Below, one piece after another: positions 13,734-41,206 of a stretch of DNA of 45,917 nucleotides. The notes beneath the pieces were generated by a model that did not search any database, was not told the DNA's origin, and saw only the letters and a list, made by a program, of their open reading frames with translations. Positions within the stretch are counted from its first letter, which is position 1. Each line of letters starts with the position of its first letter. The stretch lies in assembly GCA_014750165.1 (NCBI GenBank), contig GCA_014750165.1_4319.1; one strand, 5' to 3'. This DNA comes from a phage. Both the position numbers and the translations under genes were made by a program.

Positions 13734-13978
13734 TATTTCCACTCCTTACTGCCGTGATCTGCAACAGAACCGCCGTAACCTCCGCCAGCTTTACTTTCAA
13801 TGCCAGCGTATCGAATATCAACCTCACCAGCAGGAACAACTACACCGCCTTTCCACTTAGCTACGCACACGCCGTTTGCTTGCGTTGCACACCAACCGTC
13901 CGGTCGAGGACCAGAAGAACAACCAACTGCCATGATTACTGCCGCTGCGATGATTGCTGATTTGATTAAGTTAGTCAT
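13733..13978 (-). CDS. cor: Cor-like superinfection-exclusion lipoprotein (putative)
   Basis: 81 aa with a signal peptide and lipobox (IMAVG-C). Size and its location next to the J gene match cor of T1/phi80/N15-type phages. Confidence 0.55.
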
Positions 13979-13997: not shown

Positions 13998-14064
13998 GCG
14001 TTTCGTTTCGATGGAGTAATAGTATCGCATCCTTGCGATCAGTGTTTAGCAATTAGTGCTATTC
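13998..14064 (-). promoter_or_regulatory. box/-10/leader cassette
   Basis: Minus strand reads AATAGCACTAATTGCTAAAC, 22 nt (ATCGCA..TGCGAT hairpin), TACTAT, then CCATCGAAACGAAACGC. Confidence 0.6.
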
Positions 14065-14696
14065 GCCAAAAATACAGCTCTTGCAAATCCACGAGGTGTA
14101 AGACTGCGAATTACCTTTGTTTTCTTGCTCTTCCCGCCTAGCTTCTTGTGCTGGTCTGAGTATCCATCATTAACGTCAACTGGTGAGGCATGAGGCCATT
14201 TAAACCCATTGCCAGACCAAATGCACGTCTTCTTAGGATATGCGTCTCTTGGCTTTATTAGGTCGCTAAAAAACGGGTGTAAATCATCTTCCGGCAAATA
14301 GCCTCCGTATTCGTAAGGGTGAAACGTGTTATCAGGTTTACGCCAGAGCGATGACAGCACGCTGACTGGGTTCTCAATCATGTATGGAACTCCGTATTTT
14401 TCAGCCAGTTTAAAAGCAACCTTGCAAGTCTCTGCCGCCTCAATTTGGAAGTTTTGGTTGGCTAGGCGCTTACGCTCAAAGTGTGCTGCCCCGCTCACGG
14501 CTAAATCCGTACAGGGCGGGAATGCCATGATAAAATCAGGCTTCACATCAAAATCAAAACTGGAATCTATCCAGGCGTTAACGTATGTAATGTTCTCATG
14601 TTCAACTCTTGCGTTTAAGTAGCTATAGCTCCCGTGGTCAGACTCATCAAAGTTGAAGCAGTAGCAAGTGTGACCAGCTTCAGCCCAATCCTTCAC
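14046..14696 (-). CDS. DNA (cytosine-5) methyltransferase, short form
   Basis: AFPPCTDLAVSG matches motif IV (PC) and MIENPVS matches motif VI (ENV). The SAM motif I (SLFDGSG) lies in frame upstream of the GTG at 14696, so the real start is probably near 14735. The protein ends in box-encoded NSTNC. Confidence 0.7.
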   Translation of the reverse strand: MKDWAEAGHTCYCFNFDESDHGSYSYLNARVEHENITYVNAWIDSSFDFDVKPDFIMAFPPCTDLAVSGAAHFERKRLANQNFQIEAAETCKVAFKLAEKYGVPYMIENPVSVLSSLWRKPDNTFHPYEYGGYLPEDDLHPFFSDLIKPRDAYPKKTCIWSGNGFKWPHASPVDVNDGYSDQHKKLGGKSKKTKVIRSLTPRGFARAVFLANSTNC

Positions 14697-14744: not shown

Positions 14745-14810
14745 CTCGTTAGTTTAAGTGCGGCGATTATACCGCACAGAATTTATTGTTCTTTAGCAAT
14801 TCGTGCTATT
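14745..14810 (-). promoter_or_regulatory. box/-10/leader cassette
   Basis: Minus strand reads AATAGCACGAATTGCTAAAG, 22 nt (GTGCGG..CCGCAC hairpin), then TATAAT (14771..14766). Confidence 0.6.
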
Positions 14811-15453
14811 TCTTTTCCAGCAGCAGCTTGATGTCAATGCCGAGATTATTCTCAATCAATCCGGTCAGCGCATCATTCTTTTCTTTAAGGGCGAAGCATT
14901 GGGCTTCATATTTAAATCTCTCCTCCATCTCATCCGATCGACTAACCCAACATTGTCTAGCCTCACAAGCCAGCATATCGAGCTTTTCATCGGTATTCTT
15001 ATCCATGAGTAAAATCTCATTTATTCTTTGCTCTGCAACAATTCGCTGGCTCAGGTGTGCATTTTGCGCATTAGCCACACCAAGCATCATTCGAGCCTCT
15101 TTTAACTCATCAATGCTTACCATCTGGCTGATTACTTCTGCTTGCTTTTTAACTAATGCCTCCAGCTCATGAAGTCGACGGATTACTTTGTGTCGAAGCA
15201 CGACACTGTAGCCAGTGATTAGCGTTTCAGTGAGTTCCTTGTTGAGTAAAATCTCAGATGTATAGCCTCGATTGTCTGTAAGTAGTTGATAATCATCATG
15301 CCCCAAATCTGGGGCATCGTTATAATGTAACAATTCATTGATCATTTCCTTTGTGTCGCGAACGACGTGATCATGACGTTTGCCGGTTAACTCTGCGATT
15401 TCCTTTGTGCTCATCATGGTTTTTGGTTGTTCTTTGTACGCTTTAATGTTCAT
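14806..15453 (-). CDS. Rha-family phage regulatory protein
   Basis: STKEIAELTGKRHDHVVRDTKEMI matches the Rha N-terminal domain pattern. ATG 15453 preferred over the track start 15534. The stop TAG lies inside the box. Confidence 0.75.
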   Translation of the reverse strand: MNIKAYKEQPKTMMSTKEIAELTGKRHDHVVRDTKEMINELLHYNDAPDLGHDDYQLLTDNRGYTSEILLNKELTETLITGYSVVLRHKVIRRLHELEALVKKQAEVISQMVSIDELKEARMMLGVANAQNAHLSQRIVAEQRINEILLMDKNTDEKLDMLACEARQCWVSRSDEMEERFKYEAQCFALKEKNDALTGLIENNLGIDIKLLLEKK

Positions 15454-15519: not shown

Positions 15520-15568
15520 CCTAAATATACCCAAAGATACCCAGTTGTCTTTAGCAAATCGTGCTATT
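15520..15568 (-). promoter_or_regulatory. box/-10 cassette
   Basis: Minus strand reads AATAGCACGATTTGCTAAAG, 22 nt, then TATATT (15529..15524). Confidence 0.55.
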
Positions 15569-17412: not shown

Positions 17413-17479
17413 ATAGCACGAATTGCCAAAACAAAGCGGGATGACTTAGGTATAGTTATCCCATCAACAACGAACGAGG
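17413..17479 (+). promoter_or_regulatory. box/-10/leader cassette
   Basis: ATAGCACGAATTGCCAAA, 22 nt (GGGAT..ATCCC hairpin), TATAGT (17451-17456), then CCATCAACAACGAACGAGG. Confidence 0.6.
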
Positions 17480-17485
17480 TTAAAG

Positions 17486-18136
17486 ATGCAAATTTCAGAA
17501 TCATGCAAATCAATTTTAAACGCGCTTCACACCGCTAAATCGCTATTTGCTAAGGCTGAGAAGTCTAAGCAGAACTCACACTTAAAGAACAAGTACGCCA
17601 CCTTAGAAGACGTGCTAGCGGCCGTTGAGCCAGGCTTAGATGAGTGTGGCTTGGTTATGTTCCAGAGCGTGCTTGATGATGAACAAACCAACCGTATGAA
17701 GGTTGAGACAAAACTGTTTCATGCTGAATCTGGAGAGTGGGTTAGCTTCTTGATGATAGTCCCAATCAGTAAGAATGATGCTCAAGGTTACGGATCTGCG
17801 CTTACATACGCTCGTCGCTACGGAATCACAGCAGCCTTAGGCCTTAGCCAGGCAGATGATGATGGCAATCTGGCAGCCAAGGGTGTTAAAGACTTTAAGC
17901 GAGAACTTGAGAAGTGTAATACGCTCGATGAGCTTCGTAACGTTTGGAAGGATGCTAAGCAATCACTTGATGCGGCAGGATGGAAGGTTTTCGAGCCTCA
18001 TATTATCGAGCGAAAAGCAGAGATTGAAGCAAACGCAGCAACTGGCTTCAACCCAGCAACACCAAAGAGAGTCGCAGAAAAAAGTAGTCCTGAAGAAAAG
18101 ATTGAAGTAGAATCACAACAAATCGACACATTCTAA
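17486..18136 (+). CDS. Erf-like single-strand annealing protein
   Basis: KNKYATLEDVL...GYGSALTYARRYGITAALGL fits the ERF-family pattern. Confidence 0.75.
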   Translation: MQISESCKSILNALHTAKSLFAKAEKSKQNSHLKNKYATLEDVLAAVEPGLDECGLVMFQSVLDDEQTNRMKVETKLFHAESGEWVSFLMIVPISKNDAQGYGSALTYARRYGITAALGLSQADDDGNLAAKGVKDFKRELEKCNTLDELRNVWKDAKQSLDAAGWKVFEPHIIERKAEIEANAATGFNPATPKRVAEKSSPEEKIEVESQQIDTF

Positions 18137-21261: not shown

Positions 21262-21292
21262 ATAGCACGAATTGCTAAGTTGGATTGTAGCA
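21262..21292 (-). promoter_or_regulatory. extended -10 promoter with an inverted orphan box at the predicted transcript start
   Basis: Minus strand reads TGcTACAAT (-10 at 21289..21284). The box (21262-21279) is in the opposite orientation to the gene and starts about 7 nt downstream of the hexamer. Confidence 0.45.
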
Positions 21293-22307: not shown

Positions 22308-22781
22308 TTACCCTTTAGCTTTTCGTGCTGCCTCGTTAGCGGCCTTAATCTTGCGCCATGATCGACACTCTGGCTTGGTGGCTAACTCAGCCTCAGTAAC
22401 CACGCGTAGCATGTGACGCTTTTTGCACCGGAGTGTCAGTGGCTTGCCGTTACCGTCAAATTGCAGGTCTGGTCGGCAGAATGTAGCACGAAAACCCTCT
22501 CCGTTTCGTTTGTAGTAGTTGTGCGACAGTTGAGCACCGCGCGCAGAAATCATACCACGCTTAAACCATTCTTCTACAGCCTGCGGAGTTACCTTTAACT
22601 TCTTTGCAATATTCGCCTTTGTGACGAAGAAATCAAGGAGCATCTCAAGCCGCGCGCGTAGCCCGGCTCTTACTTCATCTTTTAAAACGTAGTAGCCTGA
22701 AGGTCGTTTACGTTGTTTTTTGTCTTCAGTGCGGATAGTTCCGTTATTACCGTTAGTGGTTCGCTTGTCAACTGCATTCAT
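22308..22781 (-). CDS. helix-turn-helix DNA-binding protein
   Basis: ANIAKKLKVTPQAVEEWFKRG is HTH-like. Basic N- and C-termini. 157 aa. Confidence 0.6.
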   Translation of the reverse strand: MNAVDKRTTNGNNGTIRTEDKKQRKRPSGYYVLKDEVRAGLRARLEMLLDFFVTKANIAKKLKVTPQAVEEWFKRGMISARGAQLSHNYYKRNGEGFRATFCRPDLQFDGNGKPLTLRCKKRHMLRVVTEAELATKPECRSWRKIKAANEAARKAKG

Positions 22782-22793
22782 TTCATCACCTCA

Positions 22794-22840
22794 ATAGCAT
22801 TTTTTGTTAAAAGTCATTCAGATTTGATGGTAGTATTGTA
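22794..22840 (+). promoter_or_regulatory. box cassette (T-spacer variant) upstream of the helicase
   Basis: ATAGCATTTTTTGTTAAAA, a 21-nt spacer, then TAGTAT (22831-22836). Confidence 0.45.
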
Positions 22841-22863
22841 CTCAATTAAACGCTACAAGACAA
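22835..22863 (-). promoter_or_regulatory. sigma70-like promoter for the HTH gene
   Basis: Minus strand reads TTGTCT (22863..22858), 17 nt, TACAAT (22840..22835). It overlaps the + strand TAGTAT hexamer. Confidence 0.5.
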
Positions 22864-22882: not shown

Positions 22883-24877
22883 ATGTTGCCTATCGAGAAG
22901 CTGGTTGCAAACTTCGATAAAGAAAGAATCAAGCAGATTCAGAAAGATTATCAGTTTGGCGAGATAACCCCTTACGAGTTCCAGTGCGTAACATTCGATG
23001 CAATCGGAAAGGCTATTGGAAAGTACGAGGCCCCATTTATCGCTGACCTTTCCGTGTCTGCGGGTAAGACAATTATTCTCGCTATGATTGGAAAGCGTAT
23101 GGAGCAGCTTGGTCTTCCTTATATGGTCCTCTCTCGCCAGTCAGAGATAATCAGCCAGAACTCAGAAGAGCTTCGCAACTTCGGCATCCGTAACAGCGTC
23201 TATTGCGCTGGCCTTAACGTTAAATCAGTTTACTACCCAACCATAGTCGCTAGTGAAGGTACCGCGGCTAACGGCTTGTTTAAGGGGCTTGGTGACTATG
23301 TTCCGGCAGTTATCGCAATCGATGAGTGTCACATGCTTGATGCTATGGATATCGTTGAAGCCGAGGAGAACGAAGAAACATTTGAGCAAATGAGCACAAA
23401 GAAAGGTGAGATGGTATTTAAGGATGGTGTTAATACCGGGTTGCTTGGCACTGGCCGCGCGCAGTACACGCTAATCATTACCGAGATGAAACGTCGTTGT
23501 CGTGAGAAGTACGGTCGCGAGCTTAGGATTTTTGGCCTTACTGGTAGCCCATATCGTAACAACGATCACATTGTCGTTAGTAACCAAAATGTCCGTGGAT
23601 TCTGGCGCAAAACGGTAATACAAGTACCAACAAATTACCTTGTTGATTTGGGATTCGTTGTTCCAACCGTTTACGGAGAGGTTGGTGATTTGGGTTACGA
23701 CCTTGCAGAGTTTGCGCCAGACGGAAGCGATGGCGTTAAAGACTTTAGCAAGAAAGAAATGGAAGCAATGGCTGCAAAGATTCACGACAACCAATCCATG
23801 ACTCAAAGGATAATGGGTTTTGTTGTAAAAATACTTGAGACTCGAAACGCCGCATTGGTCACCTGTGCTGGCAAACTCCATTGTGATGAGGCTGCTGCGG
23901 CACTCCCAGACGGATACCCCTACGCCATCATCACAGACTCCACTGGAGAGAGGAAGCGCAGAGAGATTCTAGCTGATTGCCAGACTGGAAAGTACAAAAT
24001 AATATTCCAGATTGGCTGTCTAACTACGGGCGTAAACCAGCCATTGTGGGATACCAGCGTTATACTGCGCAAGATTGGCAGTTTGACTTTGATGATTCAG
24101 CTTCTTGGTCGTGGCATGCGAAAACTAAAAAAGGCGCACATAGATGCGGGGTTCAAGAAGGAGGATCACTTGGTATTAGACTTTGCCGGAGCGCTGGATG
24201 ATATGGCCGAGCTTTACTTTGACCCAATAATTGAAGAAATTCAGGCTGAGAAGTTCAAGTCCTCAAGGAAAGGTGGTGATGAGGCCCGTCAGTGCCCGCA
24301 ATGTGGATATGAGAACTCACCATTTGCTCGACGCTGTGGCAATAAGATTGATGGTGTTAGATGCGATCACTTCTTTCAGTTCACAACTTGCGAAGACATT
24401 ACGGACCCACAAACTAAATCGGTAATTAAAAAGGGATGTGGCGCTCGTAACGACATAGCGGCAAAGGTTTGCCGAGAGTGCGGTGAGATGCTTAAAGACC
24501 CGAATGCTAATCTGACCGGTAAGATGTATCGTCGAGGAGATTACTTGCGCGTTTATGATTTCCAGATTGGATTGAGTAAAAATCAAACAGGAATAGTAGT
24601 TAAATACAACATCATGGCACATAACGGAGAGAGGTTTAACGCGTGGGAATTCTTTAACCCTGAGTCTGACCATCGAGTTTGCAGTGTTCTATGGAAAAAC
24701 TTCTGCCTAGCTCATATTGAGAATCGAACAGAAGCAGCACGAATTGGAAGATTAAAGAATGCTAGAATGATCATGACCAACGTAGATAAGTTCCGTGCGC
24801 CAGTGCAAGTAACACACAGAAAAAACGGCAAAGGAAAGGACGTGATCGCGTTTAAGAATTTTGGAGAATTGAAGTGA
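22883..24877 (+). CDS. SF2 DNA helicase (DEAD/DEAH-like) with C-terminal zinc ribbons
   Basis: Walker A SAGKT, motif II DECH, and CPQCG..C..C plus CRECG in the C-terminus. Confidence 0.8.
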   Translation: MLPIEKLVANFDKERIKQIQKDYQFGEITPYEFQCVTFDAIGKAIGKYEAPFIADLSVSAGKTIILAMIGKRMEQLGLPYMVLSRQSEIISQNSEELRNFGIRNSVYCAGLNVKSVYYPTIVASEGTAANGLFKGLGDYVPAVIAIDECHMLDAMDIVEAEENEETFEQMSTKKGEMVFKDGVNTGLLGTGRAQYTLIITEMKRRCREKYGRELRIFGLTGSPYRNNDHIVVSNQNVRGFWRKTVIQVPTNYLVDLGFVVPTVYGEVGDLGYDLAEFAPDGSDGVKDFSKKEMEAMAAKIHDNQSMTQRIMGFVVKILETRNAALVTCAGKLHCDEAAAALPDGYPYAIITDSTGERKRREILADCQTGKYKIIFQIGCLTTGVNQPLWDTSVILRKIGSLTLMIQLLGRGMRKLKKAHIDAGFKKEDHLVLDFAGALDDMAELYFDPIIEEIQAEKFKSSRKGGDEARQCPQCGYENSPFARRCGNKIDGVRCDHFFQFTTCEDITDPQTKSVIKKGCGARNDIAAKVCRECGEMLKDPNANLTGKMYRRGDYLRVYDFQIGLSKNQTGIVVKYNIMAHNGERFNAWEFFNPESDHRVCSVLWKNFCLAHIENRTEAARIGRLKNARMIMTNVDKFRAPVQVTHRKNGKGKDVIAFKNFGELK

Positions 24878-25293
24878 ACATAACAGATAAAGAATATTAC
24901 ATTGAGTTTTACCCAGGTTCAGTTAAGTCATGCCCGAAAGAGGATGACGAACAAATCTTTTGCTCTGATTGGGTTAAGTATAACTATCCAGAGATGGTAT
25001 TTTTCCACTGTGTGAATGAGGGTAAGAAAACCATTGGTCAAGCAAGAAAAGACCAGGCAAAGGGTTTGCTCAAGGGCGTATCAGACTGCATGTTTTTGAT
25101 ACCTGAATCCGTGCGAGGAAGGTATCCATTTGGCGCAATAGAGCTAAAGAGAGCTGGAAAAACACAGGCTAGCCCAGTCAGTAACGAGCAGAAGTCATTC
25201 CTGAAAAGTGTAAGGGAATCAGGAGGTTTCTCCGCTGTGGCTTACGGTCGCGAGGGTTTTCTGGCAGCATTCAAAGAAATGATTTCTAAATAG
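24874..25293 (+). CDS. VRR-NUC domain nuclease
   Basis: GTGA overlap with the helicase. GVSDCMF..IELKR matches the D..E-x-K core. The stop TAG lies inside the box. Confidence 0.7.
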   Translation: MNITDKEYYIEFYPGSVKSCPKEDDEQIFCSDWVKYNYPEMVFFHCVNEGKKTIGQARKDQAKGLLKGVSDCMFLIPESVRGRYPFGAIELKRAGKTQASPVSNEQKSFLKSVRESGGFSAVAYGREGFLAAFKEMISK

Positions 25294-25354
25294 CACGAAT
25301 TGCTAAACTCGATTTTAAAAGATGTTGTATAGTTACTTCATAGAAACGAAACAC
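25289..25354 (+). promoter_or_regulatory. box/-10/leader cassette
   Basis: AATAGCACGAATTGCTAAA, 22 nt, TATAGT (25328-25333), then TCATAGAAACGAAAC. Confidence 0.6.
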
Positions 25355-25370
25355 ATAGAGAGATAAAGAA

Positions 25371-25577
25371 ATGAAATTAATGAAATTGAAACCTATCGAT
25401 ATCCGAGTTGGTGATTATATATATAGTGGATATACAGGAAAAAAGAAATGGCGAAGAGTATCTGAAATAATTGTTCAATCAGCATATAGGTATACATTAA
25501 TTATGAATTCGTGGAACTTATCAGCTGGTAGTTGTTGTGAATTTTTAGTAAAGGGTGTTCGTAACAATACTTTTTAA
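25371..25577 (+). CDS. hypothetical protein
   Basis: 68-aa ORF after the cassette leader and an RBS. Confidence 0.6.
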   Translation: MKLMKLKPIDIRVGDYIYSGYTGKKKWRRVSEIIVQSAYRYTLIMNSWNLSAGSCCEFLVKGVRNNTF

Positions 25578-25580
25578 TTA

Positions 25581-25645
25581 ATAGCACGAATTGCTAAAGA
25601 CTAATCGGTGAGGTGGTGTATTATCACCACATCGAAACGAAACGC
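25581..25645 (+). promoter_or_regulatory. box/-10/leader cassette
   Basis: ATAGCACGAATTGCTAAA, 22 nt, TATTAT (25619-25624) in the loop of GTGGTG..CACCAC, then ACATCGAAACGAAACGC. Confidence 0.6.
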
Positions 25646-25660
25646 AGAGAGATAAACAAA

Positions 25661-25855
25661 ATGGCTACTATCTACACTGGTAAATTCTACGAATCACGCA
25701 AAACCGGTTACGAATATGAATTAGTAATCACCCCTGATGGTTATGTTCTTGACGATGGAGATGGTTACGCATTTGATGTTAGCCCAACTTACAAAGATGA
25801 TTTAGAAACTGTTAAAAACGCATTTGGCGAAAAATTTGACGAGGTATCAGAATAA
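25661..25855 (+). CDS. hypothetical protein
   Basis: ATG 25661 follows the leader. The track start 25613 lies inside the cassette. Confidence 0.6.
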   Translation: MATIYTGKFYESRKTGYEYELVITPDGYVLDDGDGYAFDVSPTYKDDLETVKNAFGEKFDEVSE

Positions 25856-26783: not shown

Positions 26784-27920
26784 ATGGCAACTGCAAAAAT
26801 CACTAACGAAGAGCTGCGTGAAGAGCTTGCTAATGGCATGACAAACAAGGCAATCGCAGAGAAATACGGAATGAACATTCGCAACGTTGAATTGCGTCGT
26901 AGTAAATTGGCAAAGAGTGGAGAATTGCACGGAAACCCAGGTATCAAGAAGTTAGTTCCTGACGGTTATATGGTTAAGGGAACCTCCACGATGATTGATG
27001 CGGATGGTAACGAGAAGCTGCGCTGGGTTAAAACCTCTGTAGACAATGAGCGACTTGAGGTTTTAATGGAGCAAGCTCGAGAAGCATTTTGCTCTGATTT
27101 GCCAAAGGCTATTCCATCTGAATCACCGAATGTTAACTTTGATGATAACACGCTTGCGATGTATCCAGTTTTTGATTTACACATTGGGGCGATGGCTCAC
27201 AAACATGAGTGTGGCGAAAACTATGATACAGCAACAGCAGAGAAAGTAATGAATGGGTTCTTTGACTACGCTGTTGATAAGGCTCCAAACTCTAAGAATG
27301 CTGTATTGGTATTGGGTGGTGATTTCCTGCATTACGACTCTCTGGAGGCTAAAACCCCGGCATCAGGTCATATCTTAGATTCTGACAGTCGTTACGCCAA
27401 GATTGTTTATGTTGCAATCCGGTCAGTGCGTCGTGCCATTTCTCGAATGATGGAAAAGCACCAAGTTATTGAAATTAAAGTAATAAGTGGCAATCACGAC
27501 GAGGCAGGAATGGTTTGGCTCCGCGCTGCACTTGCTGCATTTTATGAAGATGAGCCTCGCGTAAATGTTGATGTTAGCCCAGCCGCAATGATGATGACCA
27601 GCTTTGGAACGACGCTTATTGGATACACTCACGGGCACCAAATGCGGAAAGCCGATACTCGACTAACTGTTATGGCAACTGATTTTCGTAAGTTATTTGG
27701 CCAAAGTGAGTATGTTTACACACATAGTGGCCACTGGCATTCGCAGAAGATTACAGAAACAAACTTGGGAATTGATGAGGTTCATGGGCAGCTTGGAAGC
27801 CCTGACGCGTACTCCGCAAATGGCGGTTGGCGTTCTCAACGTCAAGCGGCAGTCATTGTCTACCATAAAGAATTCGGTGAAGTTGGCCGATTCATTTGTC
27901 GCCCTAAAATGTTTGGCTAA
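26784..27920 (+). CDS. metallophosphoesterase with N-terminal HTH
   Basis: DLHIG, GGDFLH, GNHD and GHWH match calcineurin-like motifs. The N-terminal NKAIAEKYGMNIRNVELRR is HTH-like. Confidence 0.7.
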   Translation: MATAKITNEELREELANGMTNKAIAEKYGMNIRNVELRRSKLAKSGELHGNPGIKKLVPDGYMVKGTSTMIDADGNEKLRWVKTSVDNERLEVLMEQAREAFCSDLPKAIPSESPNVNFDDNTLAMYPVFDLHIGAMAHKHECGENYDTATAEKVMNGFFDYAVDKAPNSKNAVLVLGGDFLHYDSLEAKTPASGHILDSDSRYAKIVYVAIRSVRRAISRMMEKHQVIEIKVISGNHDEAGMVWLRAALAAFYEDEPRVNVDVSPAAMMMTSFGTTLIGYTHGHQMRKADTRLTVMATDFRKLFGQSEYVYTHSGHWHSQKITETNLGIDEVHGQLGSPDAYSANGGWRSQRQAAVIVYHKEFGEVGRFICRPKMFG

Positions 27921-27985
27921 TAGCGCTTTTTGTTAAAACGATACCCGCGAAAGCGGGTATTATTGTTTTATCGAAACGGCAGGGG
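27919..27985 (+). promoter_or_regulatory. box/-10/leader cassette (T-spacer variant)
   Basis: AATAGCGCTTTTTGTTAAAA, 22 nt (ATACCCGC-GAAA-GCGGGTAT hairpin), TATTAT (27958-27963), then TATCGAAACGG. Confidence 0.55.
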
Positions 27986-29031: not shown

Positions 29032-29586
29032 ATGACTAAATTATTTATCCTTAATGGCCCAGCTGGAGTTGGCAAGGACACTATAGCCGATATCATGGTT
29101 GAGACTGGTGTCGCCAAAGAAAAGGTATCATTCAAGTCACCAATGTTTAACGTTGTAAAAGGAATGCTATCAAGCGATGAATTTGATGGATTCATCAAGA
29201 ATTACGACAATAGAGACTATAAGGAATCACCTCATGGATTTCTTAGCGGTATGACAGTTCGTGAATTTATGATTTGGATTAGCGAGTCTGTAATGAAGCC
29301 AGTCTTTGGTGATGATGTTTTCGGTAAAAGGCTAGCACAGTCACTTGGTGATGGTTGCTACATTTGCGCTGACGGTGGGTTTGCTAGCGAGATTAAGCCA
29401 CTGATCGACACTGGTGTTGAGGTAACGTTAATCAGGTTGCATAGGGAAGGGTACACATTTTATGGCGATAGTCGCTCATACATTCACGGTGTGTGTGCAA
29501 GAGAGATTGATGTTCATGTTGTTGATGGTGATATTAATGGAACATCAGCATTGGTAAGGCACGTAATAAATAGCACGAATTGCTAA
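29032..29586 (+). CDS. P-loop (d)NMP kinase-like protein
   Basis: NGPAGVGKDT P-loop. ATG 29032 lies 7 nt after GGAG (track start 29026). The C-terminus is box-encoded NSTNC. Confidence 0.65.
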   Translation: MTKLFILNGPAGVGKDTIADIMVETGVAKEKVSFKSPMFNVVKGMLSSDEFDGFIKNYDNRDYKESPHGFLSGMTVREFMIWISESVMKPVFGDDVFGKRLAQSLGDGCYICADGGFASEIKPLIDTGVEVTLIRLHREGYTFYGDSRSYIHGVCAREIDVHVVDGDINGTSALVRHVINSTNC

Positions 29587-29632
29587 AGATAATATTAAAA
29601 ACTGGGTTATCATTAACACATCGAAACGAGAT
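29569..29632 (+). promoter_or_regulatory. box/-10/leader cassette
   Basis: AATAGCACGAATTGCTAAA, 22 nt, TATCAT (29608-29613), then ACATCGAAACGAGA. Confidence 0.6.
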
Positions 29633-29654: not shown

Positions 29655-29831
29655 ATGACTAAAATGATTTACTGCACCAAGAACAACTCCAAGACGCTTC
29701 CATTTACAGTTAACCAGCCGTATAGCGCAGAGTACCAGGGCGATGGATACTACAAGATTTATGGCGACGATATGACGCACATCTTAGCGCCGATTGATGG
29801 TTCGTTAGTTGAATTTATTGTCGCTGACTAG
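29655..29831 (+). CDS. hypothetical protein
   Basis: ATG 29655 follows GAGGA. The track start 29580 lies inside the box. Confidence 0.55.
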   Translation: MTKMIYCTKNNSKTLPFTVNQPYSAEYQGDGYYKIYGDDMTHILAPIDGSLVEFIVAD

Positions 29832-31382: not shown

Positions 31383-32966
31383 TCACCCCAGCAGTCGTGG
31401 ATTAATGTAAACTTTATCACCAATCAGGCAAGTATAGTTTTTCTCATCAAGCATTGGCAGTAAGTGATCTTTAATCTTCGTCATTACTCCAGCCTGAGCC
31501 TCGAATGGCTTAACCTTGCGAGCAGCTTCATACAATGAACGAATACCAACTACGCCCTTCCCGTTTTTCCCTTGCTTGATCAGGATATCAATCAGCTTAT
31601 TCATCTCGGCATTGTCGCCAGCGTGACCAGCTGCGCTGGCAGATGACAGGTAAGTCTTGCTTAGTTCCTGGAACATGATTACAGCTTCTTGCATGGTATC
31701 AAGTTCAATCTCTCTGGATTTCTGCGGACTCCCACCGTTAGGGTTGAACCAGTTACGAACAGCATGAAGAACGGCTGCAATCCTGATGGCCTGTTTATCG
31801 AACTTGCCCAGGGCACCACGTAACATTGTGTGTGAATACTTCCCGCCATCAGCAAGGTGAGGTTCCATTTCTTGGCGCGCTCGGTTGAGGTACTTCATCG
31901 CTGAGTTGCTTACTGTCAGCTTAACATCTTGCTCATTCATTATCTCATGAACTAAGCGGAAGTAATCAGCCTTTAGTCCACCATCAATTGGCTCGTAAGT
32001 TGAGTCTCCATTCTCATCAACAAATACACGCTCGCCCAGGAATGATTTTTCACGTACAAGCAGAAAACGCTCAGATACACCGATACCACGCGCACCGGCA
32101 TTCATGATTGCATTGATTGTTTCGTCTTGCGCAATTACAGAGATGCAACCCAAAGCAACGAAGCTCATGTTGTTCTCTGCGTTAGCACGCGCAATAGATA
32201 CGTTACCCGCATCCCATGCTTTAAGCACTAGTTCGCTGTTCGTTTTCTTTGAGCCATCACCATAGGTCATGCCAAGCAGTGAGTTCACGCTCGTTGCTTC
32301 ATCCGAGATTACAGCAAAGTTACCCTGACGGTTGTTTATTCGCGCAAGACCTTCCGGCGTGGTATCGGACACGGGGAAAACGATATCGCATAGCTTCTCG
32401 AGCTTCTCCTCTAACTCCTCTTTCTCCTCAAAAAGTGAGGCCATCTCTGATGGTGACTTTTCCTGTTTCATCTCTTTTGATAATGCAGACAGCTTTGCCA
32501 TAATCTTTTTACGCTCACGCTTTCGCACTTCATTCAGCCGCTCAGTCTCAGCAATCATTGGAGCAATTGAAAGTGAGTTAATTGCTGATTTACCTGTCGA
32601 TGGCGGCTGGCTTGTCACGACATAAAGCGAAGTTGGCTGCTGAGTTCCGTGATACTCAACAGTGAATCGACCAAGCATTGCAGCGGAAATACACCCCAGG
32701 AAGTGCATATATGCGGACGACTCAGGAAACTGAACAGAACGAGCAATATTGGCTGACAGCTTACCAACAACATCAATATCATTGCCTAGTGAGATTACAG
32801 GGTACTTGTCATTAGCCGCATCAATCTCTACAGGTGCCTTCCAGAATGATTGAGACTGGCGATAGCCATTGGCATTAATAGCCACGCGCAGGGGTGGGAG
32901 GTTGTCTGCGGCTGCAATTGCCATAACCTGTTCAACAGATAGCTTATCTTCGTTGAAATCAAACAT
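31383..32966 (-). CDS. DUF3987/YfjI-like putative replication ATPase
   Basis: 527 aa with a P-loop-like SQPPSTGKSA. The overall layout is recalled from DUF3987 primase-associated proteins and has not been checked against a profile. Confidence 0.5.
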   Translation of the reverse strand: MFDFNEDKLSVEQVMAIAAADNLPPLRVAINANGYRQSQSFWKAPVEIDAANDKYPVISLGNDIDVVGKLSANIARSVQFPESSAYMHFLGCISAAMLGRFTVEYHGTQQPTSLYVVTSQPPSTGKSAINSLSIAPMIAETERLNEVRKRERKKIMAKLSALSKEMKQEKSPSEMASLFEEKEELEEKLEKLCDIVFPVSDTTPEGLARINNRQGNFAVISDEATSVNSLLGMTYGDGSKKTNSELVLKAWDAGNVSIARANAENNMSFVALGCISVIAQDETINAIMNAGARGIGVSERFLLVREKSFLGERVFVDENGDSTYEPIDGGLKADYFRLVHEIMNEQDVKLTVSNSAMKYLNRARQEMEPHLADGGKYSHTMLRGALGKFDKQAIRIAAVLHAVRNWFNPNGGSPQKSREIELDTMQEAVIMFQELSKTYLSSASAAGHAGDNAEMNKLIDILIKQGKNGKGVVGIRSLYEAARKVKPFEAQAGVMTKIKDHLLPMLDEKNYTCLIGDKVYINPRLLG

Positions 32967-32969
32967 TAC

Positions 32970-33040
32970 TTCTCTCCGTATTGTTTCTGAGCGGCCATTA
33001 TATCAACGACCGCTTATAATTCATTATCAATTTGTGCTAT
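32970..33040 (-). promoter_or_regulatory. box/-10 cassette (variant box)
   Basis: Minus strand reads ATAGCACAAATTGATAA, 22 nt, TATAAT (33002..32997), then CTCAGAAACAATACGGAGAG. Confidence 0.55.
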
Positions 33041-33424: not shown

Positions 33425-33585
33425 TTTTTTACTCTCTTCGTTGTCCACATAAATTTGTTTTGTACTGATTTGCGCACTATTCGCACAGCAATCTTATCTG
33501 TCTTTTGTACAAGTCCGTAAATCTTGCCGTCAAGCGACGCGCGGTACACCGCCTCTTCCATCGCGTCGTAAAAGTTGTCGAACAT
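33421..33585 (-). CDS. hypothetical 54-aa protein
   Basis: ATG 33585 lies right after the cassette leader plus GGGAG. Its stop overlaps the next start (ATGA). Below the ORF-track cutoff. Confidence 0.45.
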   Translation of the reverse strand: MFDNFYDAMEEAVYRASLDGKIYGLVQKTDKIAVRIVRKSVQNKFMWTTKRVKK

Positions 33586-33589
33586 TTCT

Positions 33590-33655
33590 CATCTCCCGTT
33601 TCGATGGAAAGATAATACCGCATCCTTGCGATTTCGTTTTAGCAATTCGTGCTGT
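33590..33655 (-). promoter_or_regulatory. box/-10/leader cassette
   Basis: Minus strand reads ACAGCACGAATTGCTAAAA, 22 nt (TCGCA..TGCG hairpin), TATTAT (33617..33612), then CCATCGAAACGGGAG. Confidence 0.6.
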
Positions 33656-34699: not shown

Positions 34700-34768
34700 T
34701 ATCTCCTCGTTTTGATGAGTTAACTATATCCTCCATGACCCCCAATGTCTTTGGCAAAAAGTGCTATT
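34700..34768 (-). promoter_or_regulatory. box/-10/leader cassette (T-spacer variant)
   Basis: Minus strand reads AATAGCACTTTTTGCCAAAG, 23 nt, TATAGT (34728..34723), then CTCATCAAAACGAGGAG. Confidence 0.55.
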
Positions 34769-35302: not shown

Positions 35303-35330
35303 TTGATAACGTGTATATGTGTGTTATTAT
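35303..35330 (+). promoter_or_regulatory. sigma70-like promoter for the rightward small-gene operon
   Basis: TTGATA (35303-35308), 16 nt, TATTAT (35325-35330), then a CATCTTAACGAAGGG leader. Confidence 0.5.
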
Positions 35331-35372: not shown

Positions 35373-35891
35373 ATGTCAGAACATAAAGAAGCAGTAAGTC
35401 TCGGTGAGGTGGTTCGTTACATGGCTGGCCAGGCTTTGGCTAGCGATAATAAATCATTTGCGGTTCCATTGCGCATGATCGTACAGCAAGTGTATGGACT
35501 TGATAAAGTGGATATGATGAGGGTGTACGAAGAGGACCTTACGCCTGGTGGTAAGTATCATCTCAAGAAGCTGAAGGCATCATACGTTTCAAACACAGTA
35601 AGCCGCATGCCTGAAATCAAAGCTGCTAACGTCCGGTCCATGTTCTCACTGAAGGACATGGAGTTTAATGAGGAGGAAGTTCGATGTGCGGTAATCTCAC
35701 TTGTGCCAGGCGCTATCAATACCGGGTCGCGTAACAAAGCAGAAGCAGAGAAGGAGGCGGCTATCATTGAAAAATTCAAGAAGCGACTCTTATCCGTTAC
35801 GCCAAGCGTCATTCACTTGAAAGGTGAGGAGCTTCAGGGTGCAATGTTCGCACTGTCCGCATACCAGGAACTTATTAAGGAGACAAAGTAA
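35373..35891 (+). CDS. hypothetical protein
   Basis: ATG 35373 lies 8 nt after AGGAG (track start is GTG 35319, inside the promoter). Confidence 0.6.
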   Translation: MSEHKEAVSLGEVVRYMAGQALASDNKSFAVPLRMIVQQVYGLDKVDMMRVYEEDLTPGGKYHLKKLKASYVSNTVSRMPEIKAANVRSMFSLKDMEFNEEEVRCAVISLVPGAINTGSRNKAEAEKEAAIIEKFKKRLLSVTPSVIHLKGEELQGAMFALSAYQELIKETK

Positions 35892-35988: not shown

Positions 35989-36215
35989 TGCTTATAAAAT
36001 GCGTGTATGCAAGGCAAGCCAATCACCACAACCTTTCAGTTGTAAATGGTGGGATATACTCGGCAAAGCCAATCACTCGCTTTAATGGCTCATACTACAT
36101 CAAGGTTGATGGCAATGAGTACATGGTGAAGACGATAGGTGAAGCTCTTATGATAAAAAGCCTTGGCGTCATAATGGCTAAATTCGAAATCTTTCACAAT
36201 AGCACTAATTGCTAA
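35988..36215 (+). CDS. hypothetical protein ending in NSTNC
   Basis: 75-aa ORF whose C-terminus is encoded by the box. Confidence 0.55.
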   Translation: MLIKCVYARQANHHNLSVVNGGIYSAKPITRFNGSYYIKVDGNEYMVKTIGEALMIKSLGVIMAKFEIFHNSTNC

Positions 36216-36263
36216 ACCCGCTCCGGCAGGTTTTGTTATAGTTGGTTCACACCAAACGAGAGG
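36198..36263 (+). promoter_or_regulatory. box/-10/leader cassette
   Basis: AATAGCACTAATTGCTAAA, 22 nt, TATAGT (36237-36242), then CACACCAAACGAGAGG. Confidence 0.6.
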
Positions 36264-36701: not shown

Positions 36702-36835
36702 TTTACATCCATACTTACTACACTGGGAAGTTTAATAGCGTTAAGCATTCCAGTGTTCACGATAGCTACGAGAGCGCAAAGGCCCAATGGTTGGTTCTTG
36801 GTGGTGATATCAATTCATATAGAGTCGCTGAATAG
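36698..36835 (+). CDS. hypothetical 45-aa protein
   Basis: ATGA overlap at its start, and its stop TAG lies inside the box. Below the ORF-track cutoff. Confidence 0.45.
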   Translation: MIYIHTYYTGKFNSVKHSSVHDSYESAKAQWLVLGGDINSYRVAE

Positions 36836-36897
36836 CACGAATTGCTAAAACAGTATTGGGGTAATTTGGTATAGTTACCCCATCGAAACGAACGAGG
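36831..36897 (+). promoter_or_regulatory. box/-10/leader cassette
   Basis: AATAGCACGAATTGCTAAAA, 22 nt, TATAGT (36870-36875) in the loop of GGGGTAA..TTACCCC, then CATCGAAACGAACGAGG. Confidence 0.6.
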
Positions 36898-36905
36898 AAT
36901 CAGAA

Positions 36906-37118
36906 ATGAAAATTGAAATTATCGACGTGGACTACAGACCAGAGGTAGACGTACTGACTCTTGGTGAGTGTGGATTTGAAGTTGGCGACGTAGTTGAAGT
37001 GTCAGGTCACTACGTTGATGGCAACCTTTTAATCCAGGCTATCCGTGGTACTGAGTTCGTGAGTGTAGGAAATGAAGTAAGCGCAAGCGAGCATGAATAT
37101 AAGGTGGTTGAGGAATGA
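36906..37118 (+). CDS. hypothetical protein
   Basis: 70-aa ORF after the cassette. Confidence 0.55.
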   Translation: MKIEIIDVDYRPEVDVLTLGECGFEVGDVVEVSGHYVDGNLLIQAIRGTEFVSVGNEVSASEHEYKVVEE

Positions 37119-37752: not shown

Positions 37753-37778
37753 TTTAACAAGAAATATAGGAGAGGAAA

Positions 37779-37970
37779 ATGTGGATTAAGTGCAGTGTTC
37801 GGATGCCTGAGCATTTCAGTTATGTTATCATTACAGATGGCGAGCATGTCGAGGTTAAATGGTGGAATGGTGACAAATGGGATTGTTGGGCGGATTGTTG
37901 GGTGGGTAACTCGAATATCTGTAGCGACGATGTTACCCACTGGATGCCGCTACCAGTAGCCCCTAAATAG
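37779..37970 (+). CDS. hypothetical Trp-rich protein
   Basis: 63-aa ORF after AGGAGAGGA. The stop TAG lies inside the box. Confidence 0.55.
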   Translation: MWIKCSVRMPEHFSYVIITDGEHVEVKWWNGDKWDCWADCWVGNSNICSDDVTHWMPLPVAPK

Positions 37971-38032
37971 CAAGAATTGCTAAATGGAGTCGCCACGGAT
38001 GGCATACAATAACCACATCAACACAACGAGAG
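37965..38032 (+). promoter_or_regulatory. box/-10/leader cassette
   Basis: AAATAGCAAGAATTGCTAAA, 22 nt (GCCA-CGGA-TGGC hairpin), TACAAT (38005-38010), then CACATCAACACAACGAGAG. Confidence 0.55.
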
Positions 38033-38040
38033 ATTTAGAA

Positions 38041-38280
38041 ATGTTCGGACTAAATGAAGCGATGTTCAATGCTGTAAAGCGACAGGCTAAAAAGCTCAAC
38101 GATAAGTATGAGTCACTAAGCAAGCTGGACCGCAAGAGTGATAAACTAGTTGCCGGTATCATCACTGAGATTTGGCAGCCTGTTTCCACAGTGATTAGCA
38201 GGGATCGATTTGTGTGGGTAGCTGGTTACTTGCGAGGTCGAGTTGGTCATGATGAGAATGGGAACAGCCTTTATGAGTAA
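38041..38280 (+). CDS. hypothetical protein
   Basis: ATG 38041 follows the leader. The track start 37984 lies inside the cassette. Confidence 0.55.
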   Translation: MFGLNEAMFNAVKRQAKKLNDKYESLSKLDRKSDKLVAGIITEIWQPVSTVISRDRFVWVAGYLRGRVGHDENGNSLYE

Positions 38281-38658: not shown

Positions 38659-38736
38659 GCTCTGCTAGCTCAATTGGATAGCAGCAACGACCTTCTAAGT
38701 CGTAGGTTACTGGTTCGAGGCCAGTGCAGAGCGCCA
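38659..38736 (+). tRNA. tRNA-Arg (anticodon UCU), CCA encoded
   Basis: Acceptor GCTCTGC/GCAGAGC, anticodon stem ACGAC/GTCGT with loop CTTCTAA, T arm ACTGG-TTCGAGG-CCAGT, discriminator G followed by CCA. Confidence 0.9.
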
Positions 38737-39571: not shown

Positions 39572-41143
39572 ATGAGTGATTTAATCGTGTGGGATGAACT
39601 TACATACGCAGAAAAGATGGCTATCAAGGCCATCTCTGAGCATAGTTTCGAGGGGTTCTTGCGGTGTTTCTTCCAGATAACGCAGGGTGAGAGATTTAAA
39701 ATGAATTGGCACGCGAAGTACCTTTGCCGCGTCATAGATGAGATTCTTGATGGTAAGAGAAAGGACACCATCATAAACATAGCTCCGGGATCTGCCAAAA
39801 CCGAACTGTTTAGCATCCACTTCCCTGTATATAGCATGATTAAGATTAAGAAGGTTAGAAATCTTAGTTTGTCTTTCTCTGATTCATTGGTGAAGCGCAA
39901 CTCAAAGCGTGTTCGTGACCTGATAAAGTCAAAGGAGTTCCAGGAGCTTTGGCCCTGCAAGTTTGGAACATGCAGGGATGACGAAATTCAAGTGCTGGAT
40001 GAGAATGGTAAAGTTAGGTTTGAGTCTATATCTAAGGCGATGGCGGGGCAGGTGACGGGAAGCAGGGGAGGCTACATGACTGACGATTATAGTGGTTGCA
40101 TAATGCTGGATGACCCACTAAAACCTGATGACGCGCTAAGTAATGTAAGAAGAGAGGCTGTCAACATGCTTCTCAAGAACACAATTCGTTCACGTCGAGC
40201 TAGCTCAGTAAAGGGAAAGGAAACGCCAATACTTGCCGTGCAGCAAAGACTTCATGTCCTGGACACTAGCCACTTCATGGAGTCAGGGCAGATGGGCATC
40301 AAGTTCGACGTAGTGAAAGTTCCAGCCATAGTCACGGAGGATTACGCCGACACGCTCCCTGATTGGATTAAGCAGCAATTTATTGATGATGTTCTTTCGT
40401 CACCATTTGTTGAGAGGGATGGGGTTAAGTATTACAGCTACTTCCCAGCAAAGGAATCAATAGAAGACTTGATGGCAATGCGGGATGCTGACCCTTATAC
40501 ATTCCTAAGTCAGTACGCTCAAGAACCAGTAGCACTTGGCGGCAATCTGATTAACGTGGATTGGTTCCAGCGCCTTAGCGATACATTCAGACCTCCCGCT
40601 AAGTATGATTATCGATTCATCACATGCGATACTGCGATGACCACAAAGAGTTATAGTGACTTCTCTGTACTTCAGTTGTGGGGATATAAGGATGCTAAGA
40701 TTTACCTGATAGACCAGCGCAGAGGTAAATTTGAAGCACCAGAGTTGGAGGCTGAACTACTGGACTTCGAGAAGAAATCAAGGGCAACCAGTCAGTCAGA
40801 TGGCATCCTCCGAAAGATCATCATCGAGAAGAAAGCGTCTGGTATCGGCCTGATTCAATCAGCTGGCAGGGTTATGCGAACACCGATAGAGTCATACGTA
40901 CCGGATAATGACAAGCTAACCAGGGTGATGAGTGCACTACCACAGATTAAGGCTGGTAACGTAGTTCTTCCAGAGTCATCGCCGTGGCTAAACGGATTGC
41001 TCACTGAGGTTGCGGCTTTTACGGCAGATGACTCGCATAAGCACGACGACCAAATTGACTGTCTAACAATGGCGGTAAACCTTGTACTTAACATCGCGGA
41101 TGATCCTAAGGCGAGACTAATGCGCATAGCAGGAATTAAATAG
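39572..41143 (+). CDS. terminase large subunit
   Basis: 523 aa. ATPase motifs (NIAPGSAKTE, IMLDDP) and a C-terminal nuclease region (..HDDQIDC). The stop TAG lies inside the box. Confidence 0.9.
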   Translation: MSDLIVWDELTYAEKMAIKAISEHSFEGFLRCFFQITQGERFKMNWHAKYLCRVIDEILDGKRKDTIINIAPGSAKTELFSIHFPVYSMIKIKKVRNLSLSFSDSLVKRNSKRVRDLIKSKEFQELWPCKFGTCRDDEIQVLDENGKVRFESISKAMAGQVTGSRGGYMTDDYSGCIMLDDPLKPDDALSNVRREAVNMLLKNTIRSRRASSVKGKETPILAVQQRLHVLDTSHFMESGQMGIKFDVVKVPAIVTEDYADTLPDWIKQQFIDDVLSSPFVERDGVKYYSYFPAKESIEDLMAMRDADPYTFLSQYAQEPVALGGNLINVDWFQRLSDTFRPPAKYDYRFITCDTAMTTKSYSDFSVLQLWGYKDAKIYLIDQRRGKFEAPELEAELLDFEKKSRATSQSDGILRKIIIEKKASGIGLIQSAGRVMRTPIESYVPDNDKLTRVMSALPQIKAGNVVLPESSPWLNGLLTEVAAFTADDSHKHDDQIDCLTMAVNLVLNIADDPKARLMRIAGIK

Positions 41144-41206
41144 CACGAATTGCTAAACTAAGTCGCCACGGATGGCGTATAGTTACTTCATCGAAACGAG
41201 AGGAGA
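41140..41206 (+). promoter_or_regulatory. box/-10/leader cassette
   Basis: ATAGCACGAATTGCTAAA, 22 nt (CGCCA-CGGA-TGGCG hairpin), TATAGT (41178-41183), then TCATCGAAACGAGAGGAG. Confidence 0.6.

Follow-up and report, generated by a model that had tools for sequence, protein, structure and literature searches.

Repeated marbox-like promoter cassettes in a T1-like phage genome: candidate class II promoters for host MarA/SoxS/Rob-family activators

Background

The 2024 re-annotation of phage TLS by Kropinski, Misra and co-workers described 18 intergenic "21-nt direct repeats" with the consensus aaATAGCACnnnTTGnTAAAA, oriented transcription-wise about 76 nt 5' of start codons and also present in T1, Rtp and Rogue1 (PMC11447400). 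Two blocks of the repeat, ATAGCAC and TAAAA, were invariant, only three sigma70-like promoters were reported for this genome, and the function of the repeats was left open, with stoperators, enhancer sites or UP elements offered as possibilities (PMC11447400). The present analysis concerns a repeated promoter cassette, exemplified by the copy at 25290-25340, in a stretch of phage DNA of 45,917 nt (GenBank assembly GCA_014750165.1, contig GCA_014750165.1_4319.1), which is referred to in its full length as the window. Its sequence identifies the window as a near-complete Drexlerviridae (T1-like) genome, circularly permuted with respect to the Rtp record, and the 20-bp box of the cassette as the same element as the published repeat of TLS, T1, Rtp and Rogue1. 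Over a region of 8 kb surrounding the cassette, identity with the T1-like siphophages ACG-M12, ECH1, Rtp and BEK2 was 84-88%.

On the host side, the closest described systems are the class II promoters activated by MarA and its relatives. The MarA site has been defined as 5'-gcannwwntgnnaaa-3' (PMC12052159) or 5'-GCAHWWWWTGYYAAA-3' (PMC6900184), an asymmetric sequence bound by a monomer (PMC6900184), and its GCAC and CAAA elements are contacted by the pair of helix-turn-helix (HTH) motifs in one MarA or SoxS molecule (PMC9638938; PMC8811837). Class II marboxes are in forward orientation and centred at about -41/-41.5, overlapping the -35 region of promoters that lack a -35 element (PMC8811837; PMC9638938; PMC10268841) or match it at no more than three positions (PMC10268841). 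They include micF, the class II promoter of the solved SoxS and RamA complexes, and rfaY, a class II MarA promoter whose predicted marbox has been tabulated at -41. An older consensus for the marbox is AYnGCACnnWnnRYYAAAY. This string occurs in PMC2064960 and PMC3709825.

Results and discussion

Anatomy and conservation of the cassette

The box of the cassette, ATAGCACGAATTGCTAAACT, was recognized by pattern match and conservation at 25290-25309 (plus strand) as a marbox-like candidate activator site. It contained a dyad, TAGCA-N5-TGCTA, at 25291-25305, which reads TAGCACGAATTGCTA. The right part of the box, TTGCTA (25300-25305), was separated by 22 nt (25306-25327) from the conserved -10 hexamer TATAGT (25328-25333, plus strand). 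Between the 20-mer and the hexamer lay a spacer of 18 bp (25310-25327, plus strand) whose sequence was not conserved among cassettes and whose length was invariant, the same as that between marbox and -10 at micF. With the hexamer set at -12 to -7, the predicted start was A25340, the centre of the dyad (25298) was at -42, and the 20-mer spanned -50 to -31 with its centre at -40.5. The region downstream of the predicted start (25340-25370, plus strand) held a semi-conserved leader, ATAGAAACGA, then a Shine-Dalgarno-like GAGAGA, and was followed by an open reading frame (ORF) of 68 amino acids without family match (25371-25577, plus strand). The coordinates bore out the dyad, the 22-nt gap, the -10 and the centre near -42 given in an initial annotation of this DNA, as well as its statements that TTGCTA, at 22 nt from the -10, is not a sigma70 -35 and that no -35 occurs at 17 nt. 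At that distance the copy at 25290 had AAAnnn, and no -35-like hexamer was present 16-18 bp 5' of its -10.

The extent of conservation was evaluated on an alignment of 90 sites that covered the window, Rtp, T1, TLS and Pantoea phage AAS23 as well as 20 kb of phage Vc1, and on a larger survey of 1.2 Mb of T1-like DNA from phage and viral-contig collections, in which 521 unique sites matched the box pattern. The 90 sites shared a conserved block, A1 T2 A3 G4 C5 A6 C7, a variable triplet (GAA, TTT or TAA), then T11 T12 G13 Y14 T15 A16 A17 A18. This block was followed by 18 unconserved positions and by T-A-T-A-A/G-T at positions 39-44, with a G two bases 5'; TATAAT or TATAGT at these positions was common to the six phage genomes. 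Positions 50 and 51, which correspond to -1 and +1 of a sigma70 start, were C in 61 and A in 73 of the 90 sites. In the large survey, a -10-like hexamer was found exactly 18 bp after the 20-mer at 424 of the 521 sites (81%); spacings of 17 bp and 19 bp were seen at only 23 and 16 sites, respectively. The best TTGACA match at a spacing of 16-18 nt did not exceed three of six positions in 397 of the 424 unique cassettes, in agreement with the -35 absence described above for the single copy. G was present at -14 in 357 of the 424 and the full TG at -15/-14 in 189. Because the -10 and the CA start were conserved over the 90 sites, the cassettes are read as putative sigma70 promoters, devoid of a -35, partly of the extended -10 type, and with an upstream site held in strict helical register.

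The same arrangement recurred throughout the window. TAGCA-N5-TGCTA was found 12 times (0.07 expected), and the 18-mer, with at most three mismatches, 15 times (0.07 expected). Of the 15 copies in the initial list, 14 had the layout of 20-mer, 18 bp and -10. With degenerate copies included, the window held 18 cassettes, each 70-115 nt 5' of a start codon on the same strand, and most of them preceded genes of the early class or of DNA metabolism, or small accessory ORFs.

Further features were observed around the conserved core. The TAG stop codon of the VRR-NUC gene (24874-25293) lay inside the box, within aTAGcac, and at other cassettes the stop of the upstream gene was often within or abutting the box, in the form taaATAGCAC, gene end and next promoter being packed without a gap. 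The first 10 transcribed bases were semi-conserved (family consensus ATCGAAACGA), with A at positions 55-57 in about 61 of the 90 sites. The leader had no Rfam family match; its conservation may represent an initial-transcribed-sequence signal or a signal at the mRNA 5' end.

Two other readings of the box were tried and rejected. A -35 role for TTGCTA with a long spacer would require 22 bp, and no -10 was found 17 bp 3' of it. The sigma54 consensus is TGGCACG-N4-TTGCW, part of which is resembled by TAGCACG/TTGCT; the phage box has AG instead of GG, its two elements are 2 bp too close, and the GC is absent from the TTGTTA variants.

Match to the marbox and to micF geometry

In its sequence the box is a consensus marbox. 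The segment GCACGAATTGCTAAA (25293-25307) matched GCAnnWWnTGnnAAA exactly, and exact matches to this pattern numbered 15 in the window against 0.92 expected, 14 in Rtp, 20 in T1 and 19 in TLS. The box also fitted GCAHWWWWTGYYAAA and AYnGCACnnWnnRYYAAAY. Positions that had not been used for site finding followed the marbox as well (A1 in 82, C7 in 81, W10 in 89 and Y14 in 83 of the 90 sites), the variable positions of the phage box (8-10 and 14) were the degenerate positions of the marbox, and the 90-site profile agreed with the marbox at all specified positions except 19. The TLS blocks ATAGCAC and TAAAA corresponded to its GCAC and CAAA elements. The mar operon marbox of K-12, ATGCCACGTTTTGCTAAATC, had 16 of 20 bases in common with the TTT-type phage box.

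The geometry was likewise that of a class II promoter. At micF in K-12, ACAGCACTGAATGTCAAAAC is followed by 18 bp, TAGAAT and, 8 nt further, the annotated RNA start; spacing and orientation of the phage cassettes (20-mer, 18 bp, -10) were identical to these. Every copy with a -10 in the window, Rtp, T1 and TLS was in forward orientation, GCAC distal and AAA proximal to the -10. Sequence features described for class II marboxes were found here: consensus match, forward orientation, overlap with the -35 region at a centre near -41 from the predicted start, and a weak or absent -35. By a rough estimate, the chance of a full marbox match (about 22 bits) together with this orientation and the micF spacing is well below 1 in 1000, even with the many factors and offsets open to comparison taken into account. 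Neither the marbox match nor the class II geometry, the fixed spacing or the hairpin described below was found in a literature search whose scope left out most subscription journals and the T1 genome paper, and these features appear to be new.

A host activator as candidate reader

These data suggested, with moderate confidence, that the cassettes are sigma70 class II promoters activated by a host protein of the MarA/SoxS/Rob family. A host protein would be the simplest reader because no MarA-like protein of phage origin was found: profile and single-sequence searches with MarA, SoxS and Rob over six-frame ORFs of at least 30 amino acids in the window, Rtp, T1 and TLS gave a best E-value of 0.17, and no MarA-type protein was present among the annotations of Rtp, T1 and TLS. 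In the proposed mechanism, a single molecule of the activator would read the 20-bp asymmetric site. Bound in forward orientation at about -41, it would make up for the absent -35 contact through interactions with sigma70 region 4 and an alpha C-terminal domain, which have a precedent in the solved micF class II complexes. Behind the site would follow 18 free bp, the -10, a CA start 7 nt on, a short leader and a ribosome-binding site. Rob is made constitutively and in abundance, whereas stress is needed to induce MarA and SoxS. Most plausibly, Rob would act in unstressed cells, MarA or SoxS under stress, and RamA in other hosts.

Several observations weigh against this proposal. In the absence of inducers Rob is largely inactive, and unstressed cells contain little MarA and SoxS. 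Reliance of a virulent phage on non-essential host regulators would be unusual. The literature search, with most subscription journals outside its scope, yielded no link of MarA, SoxS or Rob to T1-like phages and no start-site map. In a Keio single-knockout screen for genes that the T1-like phage LL5 requires, none of rob, marA and soxS is mentioned (PMC7229145), which is weak evidence because the three are redundant. Position 19 of the phage box was mostly A, against Y in the older consensus. The same box occurred in phage Vc1 (MT360682.2; positions 801, 7495, 12856, 15180 and 16707), labelled a Vibrio phage (host unconfirmed). The gene of the HTH protein discussed in the next section has a box in its own leader, and the box-less sigma70 promoters of this gene and of the DUF7174 gene were both conserved, a layout expected of a phage cascade. 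Finally, many copies are probably extended -10 promoters that may have basal activity, and firing without an activator would count against the proposal.

A possible phage-encoded reader

The initial annotation had proposed an activator-dependent class II promoter without usable -35, read by a dimeric phage-encoded (or phage-modified) factor. The first part agrees with our data; the second is not supported, because the site is asymmetric and about half of the T1/TLS copies have a broken dyad. In the window the dyad is real, with half-sites about one helical turn apart, yet confined to a 5+5 core, and two-fold symmetry of the CRP/FNR type was not found beyond these bases. Among the 90 sites, G4 was invariant while its partner, position 14, was C in 53 and T in 30, without compensating change in the left arm; the pairs C7/T11, A1/A17 and A0/A18 were conserved and not complementary; and in half of the T1/TLS copies TTGTTA was combined with a left arm that had not changed. 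All copies with a -10 were oriented alike with respect to it. Such a pattern fits a monomer with two different reading heads, as in the MarA/SoxS/Rob site, rather than a symmetric dimer.

Three proteins had been named as candidate readers. The Rha protein (14806-15453) lost its candidacy, as no protein of that name is annotated in the box-bearing genomes of Rtp, T1 and TLS. The product of 26784-27920, credited with an HTH N-terminus, turned out to correspond to the T1 gp16 phosphoesterase/DNA-repair exonuclease and had no HTH family match. The main phage-encoded candidate is the third, the HTH protein of the T1 gp23/rtp52 family (22308-22781, minus strand), for which the evidence is divided.

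In the main rival explanation, held with lower confidence than the host activator, an early phage protein would read the box and the cassettes would form a middle temporal class: host RNA polymerase would first transcribe the gp23 and DUF7174 genes from canonical promoters, and either a gp23 dimer on TAGCA-N5-TGCTA or the DUF7174 protein (35373-35888) would then activate the cassettes. The genome layout speaks for it. Box-less and 5' of the DUF7174 gene, the first gene of the left arm, a strong canonical sigma70 promoter was located at 35303-35330 (plus strand): TTGATA-N16-TATTAT, a 10/12 match whose -10 is preceded by TG. The HTH gene had a sigma70-like promoter, TTGTCT-N17-TACAAT, with a 9/12 match at 22835-22863 (minus strand) and no box 5' of it. 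These correspond to the sigma70-like promoters P01 and P57 of TLS, two matches to a genome in which only three such promoters were reported (PMC11447400), and the two genes are probably immediate-early. A box (22794-22813, plus strand, TTGTTA variant) lay in the 5' untranslated region of the HTH gene, 5' of the divergent helicase gene (22883); a box in the leader behind a box-less promoter, as in TLS P57, is what autoregulation predicts. The gp23 family was represented in 826 phage records, apparently throughout Drexlerviridae, and its model (AlphaFold, pLDDT 87; Foldseek) matched the all-alpha Cro proteins, which are dimeric, and not MarA. Retention of the box in Vc1 would also be in line with a phage factor, if the Vibrio label holds.

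Base-specific reading of the box by the gp23 recognition helix is disfavoured, however, because this helix varied widely (QAVEEW, QTVQGW, KTVWGW, RLTNAY, LEYREM) among phages with identical boxes. The invariant part of the protein was a predicted-disordered N-terminal motif, DKRxxNGNNGxxRGxDxxxR, and not the HTH, which suggests that its conserved partner could be a host protein rather than a DNA sequence. The DUF7174 protein gave no convincing fold match and none to a DNA-binding fold (AlphaFold and Foldseek). Along with the oriented, asymmetric conservation and the broken dyads, a phage reader would also leave the agreement with the marbox and with the micF spacing to a coincidence of the low probability estimated above. 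As a side observation, the N-terminus of Vc1 gp23 was almost identical to that of Citrobacter phage HCF1.

Less likely readings: promoters without activator, and operators

It appears unlikely that the cassettes are extended -10 promoters served by host RNA polymerase alone, with the box as an UP-element-like or bent enhancer for the alpha C-terminal domains. UP elements were raised by the TLS authors themselves (PMC11447400), and the frequent G or TG before the -10, together with A-rich flanks at positions -1, 0 and 16-19 of the box, would fit this explanation. The box nevertheless carries about 27 bits of specific sequence, far above the need of an alpha C-terminal domain; the copy at 25290, with TT at -15/-14, had neither TG nor G-14; and the strict helical phasing to the -10 points to a protein bridging to RNA polymerase. 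Invariant GCAC and TG are not known as features of UP elements.

Still less probable is a role as repressor operator, following the "stoperator" idea of the TLS paper (PMC11447400), by which early units would be shut off, for instance by a Cro-like protein. The Cro-like fold of gp23 and the position of the box 3' of the gp23 promoter, in the leader, are compatible with it. So are an orphan box at 21262-21281 (plus strand), flanked by the primase terminator and the beginning of the 875-amino-acid tail-fibre gene, which had no -10 at N18 and pointed against both flanking genes, and similar antisense boxes in the T1 late region (T1 15086 and 18850). On the other side, 81% of the boxes are fixed 18 bp from a -10 without -35, the position of an activator, where there would otherwise be little to repress, and boxes were rare inside transcription units. 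An operator function would, besides, be compatible with activation by a MarA/SoxS/Rob-family protein, as a second and later function of the site.

Host and phage readings may be combined, with the host activator acting on the marbox and the Cro-like protein later on the embedded dyad. In a broader version, which we regard as speculative and rather doubtful, T1-like phages would have tied the majority of their early and middle genes to the host's mar/sox/rob stress regulon through 15-20 marbox promoters per genome, thereby sensing chemical stress (bile salts, phenolics, redox agents, antibiotics). The dyad would be a second code by which Cro-like gp23 later shuts the promoters, broken-dyad variants would form another temporal class, and the -10 hairpin would act in DNA or as a built-in terminator.

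Hairpins and module junctions

About 70-80% of the cassettes, in the window and also in Rtp, T1 and further phage sequences, contained a short GC-rich inverted repeat; examples in the window are found at 25600-25640, 36850-36885 and 14755-14790. Folding of positions 21-58 in 355 unique contexts gave -10.8 kcal/mol on average, whereas shuffles averaged -5.1 kcal/mol; the mean was -6.95 kcal/mol for chimeras, in which the spacer of one cassette was joined to the -10 region of another. Values of -8 kcal/mol or below were reached by 72% of the contexts; for shuffled sequences and random 38-mers the share was 15-19%, and for chimeras 37%. Arm sequences differed between copies yet remained complementary. 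In 125 cases the -10 was wholly or partly enclosed by the arms, and the 3' arm was the discriminator; a tetraloop hairpin confined to the 18-bp spacer was seen in 85 cases, and some of these, with a T-rich -10 region, scanned as terminators (cf. TLS T62). The copy at 25290 lacked the hairpin that is present in its Rtp counterpart. The hairpin may act as a DNA structure at the promoter, or as a terminator or stabilizer for the upstream gene.

Cassettes were also associated with module boundaries. Ends of window/Rtp synteny blocks fell within 40 nt of a cassette in 11 of 40 cases, against 2.2 expected (P about 8e-6). The 68-amino-acid gene at 25371-25577, together with one cassette copy, was an insertion relative to Rtp (window 25290-25661, Rtp 37775-37885) with its junction inside the cassette. 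It was bounded by the cassettes 25290 and 25581, and the single Rtp cassette at 37795 corresponded in its upstream half to window cassette 25290, and in its leader and gene to window cassette 25581. The cassettes thus appear to behave like mobile regulatory units. That they are mainly recombination signals for module shuffling among T1-like phages, with secondary promoter features, is very improbable: the excess of block ends, the insertion between two half-matching copies and the precedent of the PeSL elements of T4-like phages (PMC4122927) agree with this idea, but homology suffices for such exchanges, the invariant 18-bp spacing, the -10, the CA start and the ribosome site at fixed distances would be left unaccounted for, and the shuffling is more readily understood as resulting from the repetition of promoters.

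Other copies and features in the window

On the plus strand, further cassette boxes were located at 2341-2360, 5' of a 41-amino-acid ORF in the tail gene region; at 17413-17432 (TTGCCA variant), before the ORF at 17486, the counterpart of the Erf-like gene rtp48 of Rtp; and at 25581-25600, before the ORF starting at 25661, where the -10 TATTAT (25619-25624) lay in the loop of a hairpin, GTGGTG/CACCAC. The box at 27920-27939 (ATAGCGC variant) had the spacer hairpin CCCGCgaaaGCGGG, which scanned as a terminator together with the following T-rich -10 region. Those at 29570-29589 and 36199-36218 preceded the ORFs at 29655 and 36272; at 36832-36851, before the ORF at 36906, a hairpin, GGGGTAATT/AGTTACCCC, enclosed the -10. 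The boxes at 37967-37986 (GCAA variant) and 41140-41159, the latter after the large terminase gene, preceded the ORFs at 38041 and 41214.

On the minus strand, boxes at 14043-14062, 14790-14809 and 15548-15567 were directed towards a lipoprotein-like ORF starting at 13978, a 216-amino-acid ORF starting at 14696 and the Rha-like ORF starting at 15453. The box at 33021-33040 (TTGATA variant) served a 527-amino-acid ORF at 32966, the counterpart of the DNA helicase gene rtp67 of Rtp, and those at 33636-33655 (ACAGCAC variant) and 34748-34767 (TTGCCA variant, -10 offset by 1) faced the ORFs at 33585 and 34696.

Sigma70-type promoter matches at 13-32 kb were not enriched (29 against 38 +/- 6 expected). 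The only family match in an Rfam scan was a tRNA, namely a tRNA-Arg with anticodon TCT at 38659-38736 (plus strand); other T1-like phages are reported to have one too.

Significance

The function of the repeat has been a standing question since the T1 genome paper, and the marbox reading makes it approachable by simple experiments. If this reading is true, T1-like phages would be, to our knowledge, the first virulent phage family with promoters built as host stress-regulon promoters, and inducers of mar/sox/rob (salicylate, bile salts, redox drugs, some antibiotics) should alter the dynamics of infection. The phages affected are a very common group, coliphages and Klebsiella phages employed in therapy, and are feared contaminants of fermentations as well. 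The study of MarA-type activators would also gain a collection of class II marbox promoters that are close to the consensus and strictly spaced. If a phage protein reads the box instead, its convergence on the marbox code would be informative too.

Comparison with known systems

The stoperators of mycobacteriophage L5 type are oriented repressor sites, scattered inside transcription units and independently of promoters; this distribution was not found here, most boxes being locked to a -10. The PeSL cassettes of T4-like phages (PMC2839356; PMC4122927) are similar in that a promoter and a stem-loop flank small variable ORFs at indel junctions, and the same combination of promoter with stem-loop, variable ORFs and synteny breakpoints was found for the present cassettes, a functional resemblance only, with no sequence relation. 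PeSL elements are ordinary early sigma70 promoters without activator box, whereas the stem-loop of the phage cassettes described here often encloses the -10.

Among activator-dependent phage promoters, the middle or late ones of Mu (Mor/C) and T4 (MotA and AsiA) share a good -10, the lack of a -35, an upstream protein site and a cascade that starts from canonical promoters. The MotA box is centred at -30, not -41, and Mor/C sites are dyads. No homologues of Mor/C, MotA or AsiA turned up in Pfam scans of 20 ORFs, although no search was aimed at them. CRP/FNR class II promoters are alike in having the activator at about -41.5, overlapping and replacing the -35. They differ in that CRP and FNR bind as dimers to symmetric sites, TGTGA-N6-TCACA and TTGAT-N4-ATCAA, respectively, whereas the conservation of the phage box is asymmetric; it matched neither of them, nor the other E. 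coli sites compared.

The TLS/T1/Rtp/Rogue1 repeats are the same element, described without the marbox match, the fixed 18-bp link to the -10 and the hairpin (PMC11447400). The closest likeness was to the class II MarA/SoxS/Rob/RamA promoters (micF, rfaY, lpxL), with which the cassettes share the asymmetric 20-bp marbox with GCAC and YAAA in forward orientation, its centre near -41, the 18 bp to the -10 (micF), the lack of a recognizable -35, the sigma70 -10 and the CA start. Unlike these host promoters, the phage copies, whose binding by a host factor is predicted, occur in a virulent genome, number 14-20 per genome with essentially invariant spacing, and have a frequent G or TG before the -10, a hairpin in the spacer or around the -10 and a common leader. 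They also came closer to the consensus than micF and mar, the host sites compared, which both deviate from the 15-mer pattern by one base.

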